Positions 1-6,864 of a DNA stretch of 6,864 bases are shown in pieces. This DNA comes from a virus (Duplodnaviria; Heunggongvirae; Uroviricota; Caudoviricetes). The stretch spans positions 1 to 6,864 of IMG/VR virus record IMGVR_UViG_2875713109_000003; one strand, given 5' to 3'. The position numbers and the translations under genes were made by a program. The notes beneath the pieces were generated by a model. It worked only from the letters and a program-made list of their open reading frames with translations, was not told the DNA's origin and made no database searches. How positions within the stretch are numbered: the stretch's first letter is position 1; every line of letters starts with the position of its first letter.

Positions 1-1014
1 TTAAAGATGATTTAAAGGATTTAACTCAACTGCTTCTGTCAGATGGTCAGGGGAAAAATGTGCGTAGCGCATCGTTACCTTAATATCTGTATGTCCAAGG
101 ATGCGTTGGAGTACAAGAATGTTGCCCCCCCCCATCATAAAGTGGCTTGCGAAAGTGTGTCGAAGAACATGCGAAAGCTGGCCATCAGGTAATTCAATTT
201 TGGCCCTTTTTATTGCAGTTCTGAATGCGGAGTAGCATGGCTTAAACAGAGGTTTTGATGTTCTGATGCGTGGAAGCATTTCGTATAGTTCATCACTTAT
301 TGGAACAGTTCTGTTCTTTTTTCCCTTTGTTTTGGTGAAGGTGATCTTCCCGGGACTGATTTGCATGCCAGACAGGGATTCTGCCTCACCCCAACGAGCA
401 CCAGTGGCCAGACAAATTTGTACGATCATCGACAGGTCTTTAGCTCTGCTTTTTTCGCACTCAGCAAGAAGCACTTTTACCTCTTCTACTGTCAACCAAG
501 ACAACTCCGCTTCATCAATTTTGAATTCACGAATATTTTCGAGTGGATTAGGAGCCATCCAATCATCCAGACGCTTCAATTCATTAAACATTGCGCGGAA
601 GTAAGCCAGTTCTAAATTCACAGTTCGTGGTGTGACTGCTTTTACTCTGTTGGAACGAGTAATTTTTCCGCTTAAACGTTGCTCACGATAGCTGGCAAAC
701 AATTTCGCATTAAACTCACTCGCAAGAGGGTTACCCATTGCTATGCAAGCAAACTCCATCGTATCTTTTCTTTTCTGACCATCAGACAACGTAATACCGT
801 GTGCATTAAACCACGTATCAACAAGGTCAATAACACGTCGCTTATCTTTTTTTTCACCAAGCCAAGGCTTATCAATTGTTTGGTCTTTTATATATCGCTC
901 AAATGCCAGAGCTTCCCCTTTAGTTGCAAATAGGCGGCGTACACGCCGCCCATCCCTACCGTTGGGGAAGACCTGAGCCTGCCACTTACCATTAGCGAGT
1001 TTTGTTACTGCCAC
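1..1014 (-). CDS. int: Phage tyrosine integrase, P2/186 Int family, apparently full length (337 aa, GTG start at 1014, stop at 1-3)
   Basis: Translation strongly resembles P2/186 integrase from memory. The C-terminal region carries the tyrosine-recombinase motifs HVLRHTFASH, LGHT and MRYAH (catalytic Tyr). Length equals P2 Int. It lies downstream of the repressor as in P2/186. Any attL would be left of the window. Confidence 0.9.
   Translation of the reverse strand: MAVTKLANGKWQAQVFPNGRDGRRVRRLFATKGEALAFERYIKDQTIDKPWLGEKKDKRRVIDLVDTWFNAHGITLSDGQKRKDTMEFACIAMGNPLASEFNAKLFASYREQRLSGKITRSNRVKAVTPRTVNLELAYFRAMFNELKRLDDWMAPNPLENIREFKIDEAELSWLTVEEVKVLLAECEKSRAKDLSMIVQICLATGARWGEAESLSGMQISPGKITFTKTKGKKNRTVPISDELYEMLPRIRTSKPLFKPCYSAFRTAIKRAKIELPDGQLSHVLRHTFASHFMMGGGNILVLQRILGHTDIKVTMRYAHFSPDHLTEAVELNPLNHL
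125..133. repeat. Homopolymeric C9/G9 tract inside the int coding sequence (codons Met-Gly-Gly-Gly of HFMMGGGNIL)
   Basis: Nine consecutive C on the plus strand, counted directly. On the coding strand this is ATG-GGG-GGG-GGC. It is the only long homopolymer in the window. Confidence 0.9.
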
Positions 1015-1019
1015 GTTTT

Positions 1020-1568
1020 TTACCTTTGCGTGATTAACTCTTTAGCAAATATTGATAAACCGGGCTTACCTTCTTCAAGGTAACAGCACTTTTCAAATGC
1101 TTTGCTCCATTCACCATTGGCGGACATTAACTGGTCTTCATTCAATATATTGCTGTGTCTGCGGAGTAAATTTATTGCCTGCTTTTTTGTAATGCTAAAA
1201 TCATATTTATATTCCGTCATATACTCTACCTTCCGAGGCTGGGGGGTAATTGAAATAGGTAATACTGTGACTTTAACCCTGTCTGCAGGCGTTTGATACA
1301 AAGTACGATATGCTGCGTAAATGGCTGCCCTGTCTGATTCGTACTTAATATCTTTCGTTGAACTCCCTGATAAAGTGCGCGGCGAGATTTGGATGTGTAA
1401 AGGCTTTTCAGATAAAATTTTGAAAGATGGAAAATCCTTACCGTCTACGGTATAAGTTGGATAATCGTTATAGTTTTCCATCAAGTCATTAATGTTTTTG
1501 AATTGTTCAGGTGCTGCAATTGCAGCAAATGATGACAAAATTAATACGCCTGTGACTAAAACTCTCAT
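1020..1568 (-). CDS. Hypothetical secreted/periplasmic protein (182 aa) with a predicted Sec signal peptide; family not recognised
   Basis: ATG at 1568-1566 is preceded by a strong Shine-Dalgarno AAGGAGA (1579-1573) with ~5 nt spacing. The N-terminus MRVLVTGVLILSSFAAIAAPEQ has a basic n-region, a hydrophobic core and an AIA-AP cleavage-like site, with no later hydrophobic segment. The region is visibly AT-rich compared with flanking genes. It sits between cI and int in the same orientation, where P2 and 186 have no gene. Confidence 0.65.
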   Translation of the reverse strand: MRVLVTGVLILSSFAAIAAPEQFKNINDLMENYNDYPTYTVDGKDFPSFKILSEKPLHIQISPRTLSGSSTKDIKYESDRAAIYAAYRTLYQTPADRVKVTVLPISITPQPRKVEYMTEYKYDFSITKKQAINLLRRHSNILNEDQLMSANGEWSKAFEKCCYLEEGKPGLSIFAKELITQR

Positions 1569-2308: not shown

Positions 2309-2545
2309 ATGAAAAGTAATTTTTCAATGCGCCCCAGCATCAACCTTGTGATATCTGAGCCATTCATCACACTGGATGAGTTCTGTCGTCGTACTGGTTA
2401 CAAGCCTAGCTATGCCCGCCAAATGATCCGGGAAAACCGCCTTCCCATCAGGAAAAAAGCCGGAGTTAACAGCCTTATCGAAATCAACATGTTCGCGTTG
2501 ACGATGGAAGCGGCCCAAGGCTGCGAAGTCGCAATGCAAGCCTGA
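2309..2545 (+). CDS. apl: Apl/Cox-family excisionase and transcriptional regulator (78 aa)
   Basis: First gene of the rightward operon. The HTH-like segment ITLDEFCRRTGYKPSYARQMIRENRLP resembles P2 Cox and 186 Apl from memory. SD GAGGA (2294-2298) lies ~10 nt upstream of the ATG. Confidence 0.65.
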   Translation: MKSNFSMRPSINLVISEPFITLDEFCRRTGYKPSYARQMIRENRLPIRKKAGVNSLIEINMFALTMEAAQGCEVAMQA

Positions 2546-3903: not shown

Positions 3904-4130
3904 TGGCTGATGCAATGGATCTCGTACAGCAGCGCGTTGAAGAAGAACGCCAGCGCCATATCCGTGCTGCCCGTGCCAAAACACCGGGCGTGTCCCGCGT
4001 GCTTTGCATTGAGTGTGAAGCGCCAATTCCGCCAGCACGCCGCCGTGCCATTCCGGGTGTGCAGCTTTGCATTACCTGTCAGGAAATCGCAGAGCTGAAA
4101 GGCAAACATTACAACGGAGGTGCTGTATGA
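3903..4130 (+). CDS. TraR/DksA-family C4-type zinc-finger protein (75 aa)
   Basis: Two CxxC pairs with appropriate spacing (CIEC ... CITC) and an arginine-rich N-terminal helix, typical of phage TraR-like proteins. SD GGAGG (3891-3895). The stop overlaps the dam start (ATGA at 4127-4130). Confidence 0.75.
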   Translation: MADAMDLVQQRVEEERQRHIRAARAKTPGVSRVLCIECEAPIPPARRRAIPGVQLCITCQEIAELKGKHYNGGAV

Positions 4131-5191
4131 GCACCATCCTGAAATGGGCGGGAAATAAAACCGCCATAATGTCCGAACTGAAAAAACATCTTCCTGCTGG
4201 CCCGCGACTGGTTGAACCTTTCGCTGGTTCCTGTGCTGTGATAATGGAGACGGATTATCCCAGCTATCTGGTTGCGGATATTAATCCTGATTTAATCAAC
4301 CTCTATAAAAAGATTGCCGCTGATTGTGAGGCGTTTATATCTCGTGCCAGTGTTTTATTTGAGGAAGCAAACAGTGAGCTGGCTTATTACAACATAAGGC
4401 AGGAGTTTAATTACTCAACTGAAATTACTGATTTCATGAAAGCGGTATATTTCCTGTATCTCAATCGTCACGGTTACCGTGGTTTATGTCGCTATAACAA
4501 GAGCGGGCATTTCAACATTCCCTACGGTAATTATAAAAATCCGTATTTCCCTGAAAAAGAAATTCGCGCATTTGCAGAAAAAACCCAGCGAGCAACGTTT
4601 ATCTGCGCCAGCTTTGATGAAACGCTGGCGATGTTGAAGGCGGGGGATGTGGTGTATTGCGATCCGCCTTATGACGGTACGTTTTCCGGCTATCACACTG
4701 ATGGTTTCACTGAAGATGACCAGTATCACCTGGCATCCATTCTTGAACATCGGTCATCAGAAGGACATCCGGTCATTGTTTCTAACAGTGACACATCCCT
4801 GATTCGTTCTCTGTATCGCAATTTCACTCACCACTACATCAAAGCAAAACGCAGCATCGGTGTGGCAGCTGGCGAGGGTATCCGGTTTACGTGCTGTTGC
4901 TGTGATGTTTATGAATCCACTGGCAGCACTACGCGGTGGGCTGGCTGCCGCAGGCGCGGTGCTGCGTGTGCTCGCATCCGGCCCGCTGGCGATGCTGCGC
5001 GTTGCCCTGTATGCCATATCTGGTCTGTTAGGTGCTCTGCTCAGTCCGATAGGTCTTGTGGTTACTGCACTGGCGGGCGTGGCGCTGGTTGTCTGGAAAT
5101 ACTGGCAACCCATCACCGCATTTCTCGGTGGCGTGGTGGAAGGATTCAAAGCGGCGGCAGGTCCCATCAGTGCAGCATTCGAACCACTTAA
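4127..5191 (+). CDS. dam: Dam-family N6-adenine DNA methyltransferase; native C-terminus lost, with the frame reading on into out-of-frame tape measure sequence after ~residue 245
   Basis: SD GGAGG (4116-4120). N-terminus [11 protein letters not shown] and motif EPFAGSCAV (SAM-binding motif I) plus catalytic DPPY (4661-4672) are typical of Dam/D12-class methyltransferases. The segment IKAKRSIG (to ~4861) matches the Dam C-terminal region. After that the translation becomes Cys/Arg/Gly-rich ([11 protein letters not shown]), which looks like wrong-frame reading. The ATG at 4067 in the ORF track is inside the TraR gene and is rejected as the start. Confidence 0.75.
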
Positions 5192-5948
5192 GCCTGTGTT
5201 TCAGTGGATTGGCGACAAAGTGCAGGCGTTGTGGGGCTGGTTTACTGATCTGCTGACGCCCGTTAAGTCGACCTCTGCCGAACTGCAGAGCGCAGCGACA
5301 ATGGGGCGACGATTCGGGGAGGCACTGGCGGAAGGGCTGAATATGGTCATGCATCCGCTGGACTCCCTGAAATCCGGTGTTTCCTGGTTGCTGGAGAAAC
5401 TCGGCATTGTCAGTAAAGAGGCAGCAAAGGCGAAACTGCCGGAAAGCGTGACGCGTCAGCAACCTGCGACGGTGAATACAGACGGTAAAGTGATGATGCC
5501 ATCAGGTGGCTTTCCGTCATGGGGATATGGCTTTGCGGGGATGTATGACAGTGGGGGGTATATCCCGCGCGGGCAGTTCGGTATTGTCGGTGAAAACGGG
5601 CCTGAAATTGTCAACGGTCCGGCAAATGTGACCAGCCGGAGAAATACAGCTGCACTGGCTGCCGTTGTTGCCGGAATGATGGGCGTTGCTGCTGCGCCTG
5701 CAGAGCTTCCGCCGTTACATCCTTTGGCACTTCCCACGAAAGGCGGTGAAGCGATGATTAATCGCGCAGCCACTGTGACGCCCGTTTACCGGATTGAGGC
5801 ACCGACGCAGATCATCATCCAGACGCAACCAGGACAAAGTGCGCAGGATATTGCGCGGGAGGTGGCCCGCCAGCTTGATGAACGTGAACGCAGGCTGAAG
5901 GCAAAAGCCAGGAGTAACTACAGCGATCAGGGGGGATACGACGCATGA
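4860..5948 (+). pseudogene. T: Tail tape measure protein (P2 gpT family), C-terminal ~360 codons only; 5' portion deleted
   Basis: GC-rich frame giving an Ala/Gly/Leu-rich hydrophobic segment followed by a C-terminal region typical of myovirus tape measure proteins. It lies directly upstream of U and D, as in P2. P2 gpT is roughly 800 aa, so more than half is missing. The in-frame stop at 4800-4802 limits the upstream extent. No convincing SD precedes the GTG at 4860. Confidence 0.7.
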
Positions 5949-6430
5949 TGATGGTGCTGGGATTGTACGTGTTTATGCTGCGCACCGTGCCGTATCAGGA
6001 ACTGCAGTATCAGCGTAGCTGGCGACATGCGGCTAACAGCCGGGTAAATCGTCGTCCGTCCACGCAGTTTCTGGGACCGGACAACGACATGCTGACGCTT
6101 TCTGGTGTTCTTATGCCGGAGATAACAGGCGGCAGGCTGTCGTTGCTGGCACTGGAGCAGATGGCAGAACAGGGGAAAGCATGGCCTCTGATTGAAGGCA
6201 GCGGCACGATTTACGGCATGTATGTGATTGAGGGACTGAATCAGACTAAAACGGAGTTTTTCCGCGACGGTATGCCGCGCCGGATTGAGTTCACCCTGTC
6301 GCTCAAACGGGTAGATGAATCCCTGTCCGATATGTTCGGTGATCTCAGTTCGCAGCTGAATAATCTGCAGGACACGGCAACATCTGCATTAAGCGATATC
6401 AGTAAAACGGTGGGAGGGCTGCTGTCGTGA
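5945..6430 (+). CDS. U: Phage tail protein U (P2 gpU family), apparently intact (161 aa)
   Basis: N-terminus MMMVLGLYVFMLRT... and the internal motif GGRLSLLALEQMAEQGKAWPL...GMYVIEGL resemble P2 gpU from memory. SD GGGGGA (5931-5936). The start overlaps the T stop (ATGA). Confidence 0.85.
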   Translation: MMMVLGLYVFMLRTVPYQELQYQRSWRHAANSRVNRRPSTQFLGPDNDMLTLSGVLMPEITGGRLSLLALEQMAEQGKAWPLIEGSGTIYGMYVIEGLNQTKTEFFRDGMPRRIEFTLSLKRVDESLSDMFGDLSSQLNNLQDTATSALSDISKTVGGLLS

Positions 6431-6864
6431 ATTTCAGCTCTGAACTGCTTAACAAAGGCAACAATTCTCCGGCATTCAGCATCAGTATTGAAGGCAGGGA
6501 TATCACCACTGTGCTGGACAACCGCCTGATGGGGCTTACGCTGACGGATAACCGGGGCTTTGAAGCGGACCAGCTTGATCTGGAGCTGGACGACGCTGAC
6601 GGAAAAATCGTGCTGCCGCGCCGTGGTGCGGTCATTACGCTGGCGCTGGGCTGGAAGGGGCAGCCGCTTTTCCCGAAGCGAAGCAGGGCGATTACCTGGT
6701 GGGTACGGATGAAAATGTGCTGGTACTTAATCGTACTTATGCCAACCGGAGCAACGCCGAGCGAGCGGCGAAAATGCAGTGGGAACGCCTGCAACGCGGC
6801 GTTGCGTCATTCTCGCTACAACTGGCGGAAGGGCGGGCAGATCTCTACACGGAAATGCCAGTGA
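6427..6864 (+). pseudogene. D: Tail protein D (P2 gpD / late control gene D family), disrupted: N-terminal ~80 codons in one frame, C-terminal-like sequence in another frame from ~6675
   Basis: The GTG at 6427 overlaps the U stop. Frame A gives MNFSSELL...RDIT...TDNRGFEADQLDLELDDADG...LALGWKGQPLF, which is gpD-like, then turns into W/C-rich nonsense and stops at 6862-6864. Frame B (open from 6600 to the window end) reads EAKQGDYLVGTDENVLVLNRTYANRSNAERAAKMQWERLQRGVASFSLQLAEGRADLYTEMPV, which is gpD C-terminal-like. Confidence 0.65.

Follow-up and report, generated by a model that had tools for sequence, protein, structure and literature searches.

Does a run of nine guanines in the coding strand of a prophage integrase gene act as an evolved switch of prophage mobility, or is it an incidental mutational hot spot? 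The question is raised by a G9 homopolymer at positions 125–133, on the minus strand, of the window, by which we mean the whole stretch of 6,864 nucleotides that was analysed; on the plus strand the run reads as C9, CCCCCCCCC. The initial annotation of this DNA had proposed that the loss or gain of one base would turn the integrase off, in a reversible manner, and lock the element in place. Our comparisons of the tract with its natural alleles, with its relatives and with the state of the prophage around it lead us to consider it likely that G9 is an incidental and lineage-specific frameshift hot spot in int, which grounds the prophage through the loss of Int, and not a switch that has evolved as such.

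Position of the tract in the integrase gene

The only long ORF spanning the tract is int (1–1014, minus strand), which is intact and in frame in the window and encodes a tyrosine recombinase of 337 aa. Its product matched the Pfam families Int_N (PF24624, 1.3e-33, residues 57–165) and Phage_integrase (PF00589, 6.2e-23, residues 173–321). Among the solved integrases, matches were obtained to the catalytic domain of HP1 integrase (1AIH, E 8e-66), to 5C6K (E 1.5e-52) and also to 5DOR; the last two structures we take to be P2 integrase, their HFMINGGS motif being that of the P2 int gene. Int shares 60.2% identity with phage 186 Int over its full length, the nearest phage record is that of Klebsiella phage ST13-OXA48phi12.1 (85%), and a protein identical to Int of the window (P0001) is present in E. 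coli assemblies. Judged by these similarities, Int is a member of the HP1/P2/186 integrase family, with which it shares the Int_N plus Phage_integrase architecture, the R-H-R-H-Y residues and the motif HFMM-x-GG-N/S, as well as the location of int near cI at the prophage end and the integration into the 3′ end of a tRNA gene.

The catalytic set R-H-x-x-R-H-Y is complete in Int of the window, and all of its residues align to HP1 Int (1AIH). The box I arginine R207, within ATGARW (codon at 394–396, minus strand, as for all codons given here), is invariant in an alignment of 120 homologues. The His/Arg box (box II, H282-V-L-R285, 160–171) is placed by the structure alignment upstream of the tract in the coding direction; R285 (160–162) is likewise invariant and H282 (169–171) nearly so. 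On the other side of the tract lie the histidine of the LGH motif, H308 (91–93), and the catalytic nucleophile Y317 (64–66), which aligns to the MRYAH of HP1, both nearly invariant among the 120 homologues. The 1AIH alignment and the conservation within the family thus bear out the earlier placement of the tract between the His/Arg box and the catalytic tyrosine.

On the coding strand the tract and its surroundings read CAC TTT ATG ATG GGG GGG GGC AAC ATT CTT, that is HFMMGGGNIL, and ATG ATG GGG GGG GGC AAC corresponds to M293, M294, G295, G296, G297 and N298 of the 337-aa ORF. The nine guanines are made up of the third base of the M294 codon, the GGG codons of G295 and G296 and two bases of the GGC codon of G297, so that sequence and ORF agree with the ATG-GGG-GGG-GGC (MGGG) reading of the initial annotation. 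The tract sits 87% along the ORF. In the family motif HFMM-x-GG-N-I-L, G296 and G297 are conserved and the position marked x, residue 295, is variable: in the alignment of 120 homologues it is occupied by N (53), R (28), S (13), A (5), G (2), K (2) and other residues.

G9 is the longest homopolymer of the window, the runner-up being a T8 at 847–854. With the composition of the window, C or G runs of at least nine bases are expected about 0.02 (first-order Markov) to 0.03 (independent bases) times in 6864 bases. GGG accounts for 13 of the 78 glycine codons in the window's genes and, given the peptide MGGG and this codon usage, the probability of two GGG codons in a row is about 2–3%. As far as these frequencies tell, the run is unusual, yet reachable through chance synonymous drift.

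G8 and G10 alleles in natural isolates

The tract had been predicted to be prone to slippage, and alleles of the same gene with eight and with ten guanines are indeed present in independent public assemblies. Within the 90%-identity protein cluster of Int, which has 16 members, two proteins (P0124 and P0131) are truncated through a change of frame at the tract. In the −1 frame, that of G8, translation ends at a TAA at 75–77 (minus strand) and yields P0124, a protein of 312 aa ending in ...MMGGATFLYSNASLDIQILR and encoded by a gene of 939 nt in loci L002–L006. In the +1 frame, that of G10, a TAA at 80–82 (minus strand) closes P0131, a protein of 311 aa ending in ...MMGGGQHSCTPTHPWTYRY, whose gene measures 936 nt in loci L007 and L008. 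Both products are devoid of H308 and Y317, which confirms the anticipated truncation of Int ahead of the catalytic tyrosine by an indel of one base. The remaining short members of the cluster are fragments at contig ends; apart from these, every truncated int allele breaks at the tract.

The G8 allele was found in assembled contigs of GCA_900479265.1, ERR13482074, SRR24987566, ERR1995446 and SRR32903574 and the G10 allele in assembled contigs of SRR24504109 and SRR13000442, and each of the ten loci retrieved with the full-length protein (L009–L018) has G9. Tract lengths of 8, 9 and 10 were the only ones seen. The contigs number six for G8, three for G10 and 107 for G9 (P0001, or 242 index blocks), which puts the in-frame G9 at about 92–96% of contigs and the off alleles at about 4–8%, the latter being a rough frequency because the counts come from an index and not from a census.

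The prophage sequences with G8, G9 and G10 are at least 99.9% identical to each other. Over the 4870 bp in common with the window, the change in the tract is the sole indel and is accompanied by 0–2 SNPs. Over up to 12.7 kb, the other homopolymers of six or more bases (19–37 of them, including two A8) show no change in length. Since no other homopolymer is altered, the G8 and G10 contigs are not generally indel-prone assemblies, and this origin of the variants can be discarded.

The off alleles are spread over at least three prophage haplotypes, which are also met with G9. G8 appeared both with 9894A (L002–L005, which also have 6571T) and with 9894G (L006, in which 6571 is not covered), and G10 both with 5987G (L007) and with 5987A (L008); the 6571T/9894A type and the 5987A type also occur with G9. 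The derivation of all G8 alleles from one event is unlikely, because L006 has 9894G and the A state of L002–L005 is found with G9 as well. The distribution of these SNPs implies three or more independent slips, the most parsimonious count being four, and at least two are certain, one per length. Several of the G8 contigs that share one haplotype may come from the same clone or even from the same strain, as in the case of GCA_900479265.1 and ERR1995446.

Among 5426 complete genomes of E. coli the region is present in only two, each time with G9, so that complete genomes provide no length spectrum. Likewise, a pattern scan that allowed any tract length (GCCACTTTATGATG N{4,14} CAACATTCTTGTACTCCAACG) found no copy in JGI metagenome or IMG/VR viral contigs, and the length spectrum therefore comes entirely from isolate assemblies.

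The tract in related integrases

The comparison of tract length across related assemblies, proposed in the initial annotation, found G8, G9 and G10 all present and G9 not shared by all related int genes. In a sister lineage (P0121, 342 aa, 121 index blocks, about 95.6% nucleotide identity) the same peptide MMGGGN is written ATG ATG GGT GGG GGG AAC, and P0007, which represents another MMGGGN lineage, uses GGC GGC GGC. Frameshift alleles appeared in none of the 121 index blocks of the sister lineage versus nine of the 251 of the G9 lineage, a difference of marginal significance (Fisher p = 0.034).

We further measured the longest G run at the site in 81 int homologues from 80 loci of species-representative genomes. 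It was of two bases in 67 of them, three in four, five in six and six in four, and a run of seven or more was found in none of the 81, a result that rules out the tract as a feature of the family. P2, 186 and HP1 all have N at position 295, the motif being HFMINGGS (AAT GGA GGA AGT) in P2 and HFMMNGGN (AAT GGC GGT AAT) in 186; the NGGS that the initial annotation gave for P2 is thus correct. Unlike the P2 and 186 integrases, Int of the window has Gly instead of Asn at 295, and the three glycine codons that follow the ATG form G9. The view that the family does not require the tract is therefore supported both by the interrupted run of the sister lineage, which encodes the same peptide, and by the Asn of P2, 186 and HP1.

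In other lineages, Arg at position 295 is encoded by CGG and gives rise to runs of G7–G8 (CGG-GGG-GGN), and single frameshifted alleles were found at such CGG tracts in L105 (CGG GGG GGA ACA) and L106 (CGG GGG GCA ACA). Owing to the conserved Gly-Gly following the ATG, the site is repeatedly prone to the build-up of G runs, and nine guanines were reached, among the lineages compared, in this one only. With the run interrupted in the sister lineage, replaced by GGC codons in P0007 and shorter than seven in every homologue surveyed, the comparison revealed no tract that would have been maintained by selection.

Prophage context and state of decay

The complete E. coli chromosomes of PSS-07 and 28A18CPO003A contain the window without a difference, and a megablast of its positions 1–1100 against the phage collection gave no match. 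By its gene content and location, the element is a 186/P2-like (Peduoviridae) prophage remnant at the 3′ end of tRNA-Ile in E. coli. The gene order runs from int through a 182-aa ORF, cI, a 78-aa ORF in the position of apl/cox, cII, fil, DUF5347 and DUF2732 to a traR-like gene, a fusion of a truncated dam methylase with the tape-measure gene, gpU and gpD, with ogr and tRNA-Ile just outside the window. A putative excisionase is encoded at 2309–2545. At the deletion junction, 4880/4881, the dam methylase is cut short and runs into the 3′ portion of the tape-measure gene; about 521 bp are missing from the interior of gpD, and gpA, the head genes, the lysis genes and most tail genes are absent from the window. 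Full prophage copies, with gpA, portal and terminase genes, occupy the same site in other E. coli assemblies. Another remnant (L017), with a deletion junction of its own, keeps G9 too.

The element is flanked by a direct repeat of 47 bp that corresponds to the 3′ end of tRNA-Ile (7290–7336 and 16425–16471 of L001). Both 47-bp att cores are identical in the element of the window and, the cores being intact, Int still has its substrate. The window has hence lost genes for lytic growth and retains both int and att, and inactivation of int or att was found only in the relatives with G8 and G10. The proposal that the tract locks the element in place does not hold for the window, where the prophage is already a deletion remnant, non-viable through these deletions, with int in frame, so that it is not the tract that keeps this element where it is.

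Origin of the tract and fate of the frameshifted alleles

The hot spot that we favour could have arisen in a few steps. The variable residue beside the conserved Gly-Gly (HFMM-x-GG-N) would have become Gly, and synonymous changes would have led to GGG-GGG-GGC directly after the ATG. Strand slippage during replication may then add or remove one G, and the frame would shift 11 codons ahead of H308 and 20 codons ahead of the catalytic Y317. From what is known of the family, the resulting products of 311 or 312 aa should keep the DNA-binding parts and lose DNA cleavage. Given this loss of catalytic residues, a prophage with an off allele would be capable of neither excision nor reintegration and would become 'grounded', a fate for which the inactivation of int is a recognised route (PMC6379469). 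Back-slippage to G9 would be expected at a similar rate, which makes reversal possible in principle, and the off alleles could be leaky if RNA polymerase or ribosomes slip on the run.

In mismatch-repair-defective E. coli, four 8-bp G·C runs accumulated 95 indels over about 250,000 generations; runs of this kind are outliers in the K-12 genome, and the indel rate grows exponentially with run length (PMC8510543). The 95 indels amount to roughly 1e-4 per run per generation in these mismatch-repair-defective lines. With mismatch repair active, the rate should be about two orders of magnitude lower. A slip rate of the order of 1e-4 per generation is thus probable for the tract only where mismatch repair is defective, and one about 100-fold lower elsewhere. 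It follows from the low rate in repair-proficient cells that the tract would constitute a fast route to prophage decay and not a working phase-variation switch. On a back-of-envelope estimate, a rate near 1e-6 in a young lineage (no more than 2 SNPs in 4.9 kb) would fit a frequency of off alleles of a few per cent with no selection involved.

In mutational behaviour the tract is akin to the 8-bp G·C runs of the leuP/Q/V/T tRNA genes of E. coli, indel hot spots in MMR-defective mutation-accumulation lines (PMC8510543), which are also homopolymers of extreme length and strong hot spots of ±1 indels. Unlike these runs, the tract of the window is one base longer and belongs to a protein-coding gene on a mobile element; the variants come from natural isolates and not from laboratory lines. 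In its consequences the tract resembles the lesions of grounded or cryptic prophages (PMC6379469), since a frameshifted int would block the excision of an otherwise intact prophage, and the window shows later decay in the form of the dam-to-tape-measure and internal gpD deletions. It differs from them in that the lesion of int is predictable, at one hypermutable site, and could be undone by a single back-slip, and in that the window presents the order reversed, with structural genes lost and int and both att cores intact.

Alternative explanations

The G8 and G10 variants were called from assembled contigs, including those of Logan/SRA runs, and long G runs are well known as places where sequencing and assembly go wrong, poly-G being error-prone on several platforms. 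One NCBI contig (L110) stops within the tract, after ATGATGGGGGG, which indicates that assemblers do struggle at this site, and both complete E. coli genomes with the region have G9. It could hence be argued that G9 is neutral, that G8 and G10 are errors of sequencing or assembly and that no real variation in length exists. We regard this as unlikely, because G8 was called repeatedly, in five loci that represent no fewer than four separate samples, as was G10 in two, and because their contigs show no other indel or homopolymer change, unlike errors of the long-read or Ion Torrent style. Furthermore, short-read consensus errors are uncommon at a 9-mer, and G·C runs of eight bases have been shown to attract indels strongly in E. 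coli (PMC8510543). Another explanation would be a programmed recoding, in which slippage of RNA polymerase or the ribosome on G9 would give rise to a defined fraction of truncated, DNA-binding and catalytically dead Int able to modulate recombination. This is a formal possibility only, suggested by the fact that long homopolymers can cause transcriptional slippage and by the rapid closure of the alternative frames (75–77 and 80–82), which would give discrete products. Since the tract is conserved in no relative, the out-of-frame tails are not conserved peptides and the known bacterial transcriptional slippage sites are runs of A or T, we find it extremely improbable.

A third alternative would have selection act on the length of the tract itself. 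Like the simple-sequence contingency loci of Neisseria, Haemophilus and Campylobacter, G9 is an intragenic poly-G run in which a change of ±1 switches the frame, natural isolates include both on and off lengths and the change could in principle be undone. In an evolved locus of this type, selection would keep both excision-competent cells with G9 and locked cells with G8 or G10, as a reversible bet-hedging on mobility. Both off lengths do occur in nature, on backgrounds identical to those of the on states, and have arisen more than once; off alleles reside in otherwise intact prophages with gpA, portal and terminase genes (L002, L003 and L007), one back-slip would restore the frame and the intact att cores provide Int with its substrate. 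However, the tract is missing from the sister lineage, in which the peptide is identical, and from the 81 homologues, and shows no sign of long-term maintenance. Unlike the contingency loci, it is unconserved and confined to one young lineage, its spectrum is narrow (8, 9 and 10, that is, only ±1) and dominated by the on state, with G9 at about 92–96%, and it lies near the 3′ end of the gene, where, 87% into the ORF, almost the whole protein is made to no purpose in the off state. Mismatch repair is active in the host, E. coli, and the high indel rates of G·C runs were documented in mismatch-repair-defective lines (PMC8510543). No reversion was inferred from the loci fetched, and a literature search found no precedent for a phage integrase controlled by a homopolymer or by slippage. 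Taken together, these data make an evolved contingency locus quite improbable, and the 'reversible on/off switch' of the initial annotation is not sustained by a tract of one young lineage with no counterpart longer than six in the survey. We likewise consider it very doubtful that the tract works as a phase switch of prophage mobility, for which slippage would have to toggle Int fast enough, as it might above all in the mutator sublineages that are common in natural E. coli, for lysogen populations to hedge between an excisable and a locked prophage, the locked cells escaping the consequences of excision or induction.

Implications

As the evidence stands, the tract is ordinary in kind, a hypermutable coding homopolymer in the recombinase of a mobile element with natural frameshift alleles. 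If the tract were found to switch rapidly and in both directions, it would join the few examples of simple-sequence phase variation in E. coli, as the first to affect an integrase of the P2/186 type, and an SSR-controlled integrase would, if true, give the P2/186-like phages a means of controlling the prophage that has not been described for them. For annotation, the 'truncated integrases' of 311 and 312 aa of this prophage family are best regarded as tract-length variants, and the tract deserves a check at the level of reads before int is called a pseudogene. With the incidental hot spot that we favour, an accident at the synonymous level creates a site at which the loss of Int far exceeds ordinary mutation, and the tract offers a concrete and datable example of the first step of a temperate phage towards domestication.

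Homopolymeric runs in the integrase gene

Runs of G are also found at the tract site in related int lineages in which position 295 is an arginine encoded by CGG, reaching G7–G8. Single frameshifted alleles occur in these lineages, reading CGG GGG GGA ACA in L105 (SRR23653020) and CGG GGG GCA ACA in L106 (ERZ28574231). A 609-bp contig assembled from short reads (L110; GCA_009799475.1, WTUU01000252.1) ends inside the tract, after ATGATGGGGGG, a break that reflects either read heterogeneity or a collapse of quality over the poly-G stretch of that assembly. Another homopolymer of the int gene, an A8 run on the coding strand (GAA AAA AAA GAT, window 847–854), was used as an internal control only; its length was unchanged in all 17 loci compared, which were chosen via the protein and hence constitute a biased sample.

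Deletions and variable gene content of the remnant

The dam methylase gene (window 4127–4880) is cut and fused at 4880/4881 to the tape-measure gene, of which the 3' portion remains (window 4881–5948), with loss at this junction of gpA, all the head and lysis genes and most of the tail genes. The 374-aa ORF spanning window 4067–5191 is a fusion artefact of the junction. The second prophage remnant bearing a G9 tract, L017, departs from the intact prophage at the equivalent of window position 4757, and its deletion is therefore independent of that in the window. With L017 as reference, a further ∼521 bp are missing inside the window gpD (ORF 6427–6864), at a junction displaying a short overlap (window ∼6672–6677); RefSeq labels this gene only as 'frameshifted'.

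Between cI and int lies an ORF of 182 aa (window 1020–1568, minus strand) with a signal-peptide-like N-terminus and without Pfam match. Since relatives carry unrelated genes at this location, namely a 60-aa YdcA-like product in L105 and a 288-aa one in L107, these data suggest a variable cargo slot within the lysogenic operon. The interval from int to the distal copy of att (L001 7290–9000, in the locus holding the window, beyond int and outside the window) is a second variable slot within the att boundaries, occupied in the G9 lineage by an AF_1680-family cargo gene (PF27235, 444–450 aa) and in the sister lineage by a different gene of 401 aa with a faint DUF7837 match.

At the position of the excisionase gene apl/cox, a 78-aa ORF (window 2309–2545, plus strand) without Pfam match is assumed, from its position only, to encode a putative recombination directionality factor. 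The remnant is flanked by a 47-bp perfect direct repeat corresponding to the tRNA-Ile 3' end (L001 7290–7336 and 16425–16471). Because this repeat is present on both sides, both att cores are kept in the ∼9.2-kb element, in which int is also intact, and the element may be excisable.
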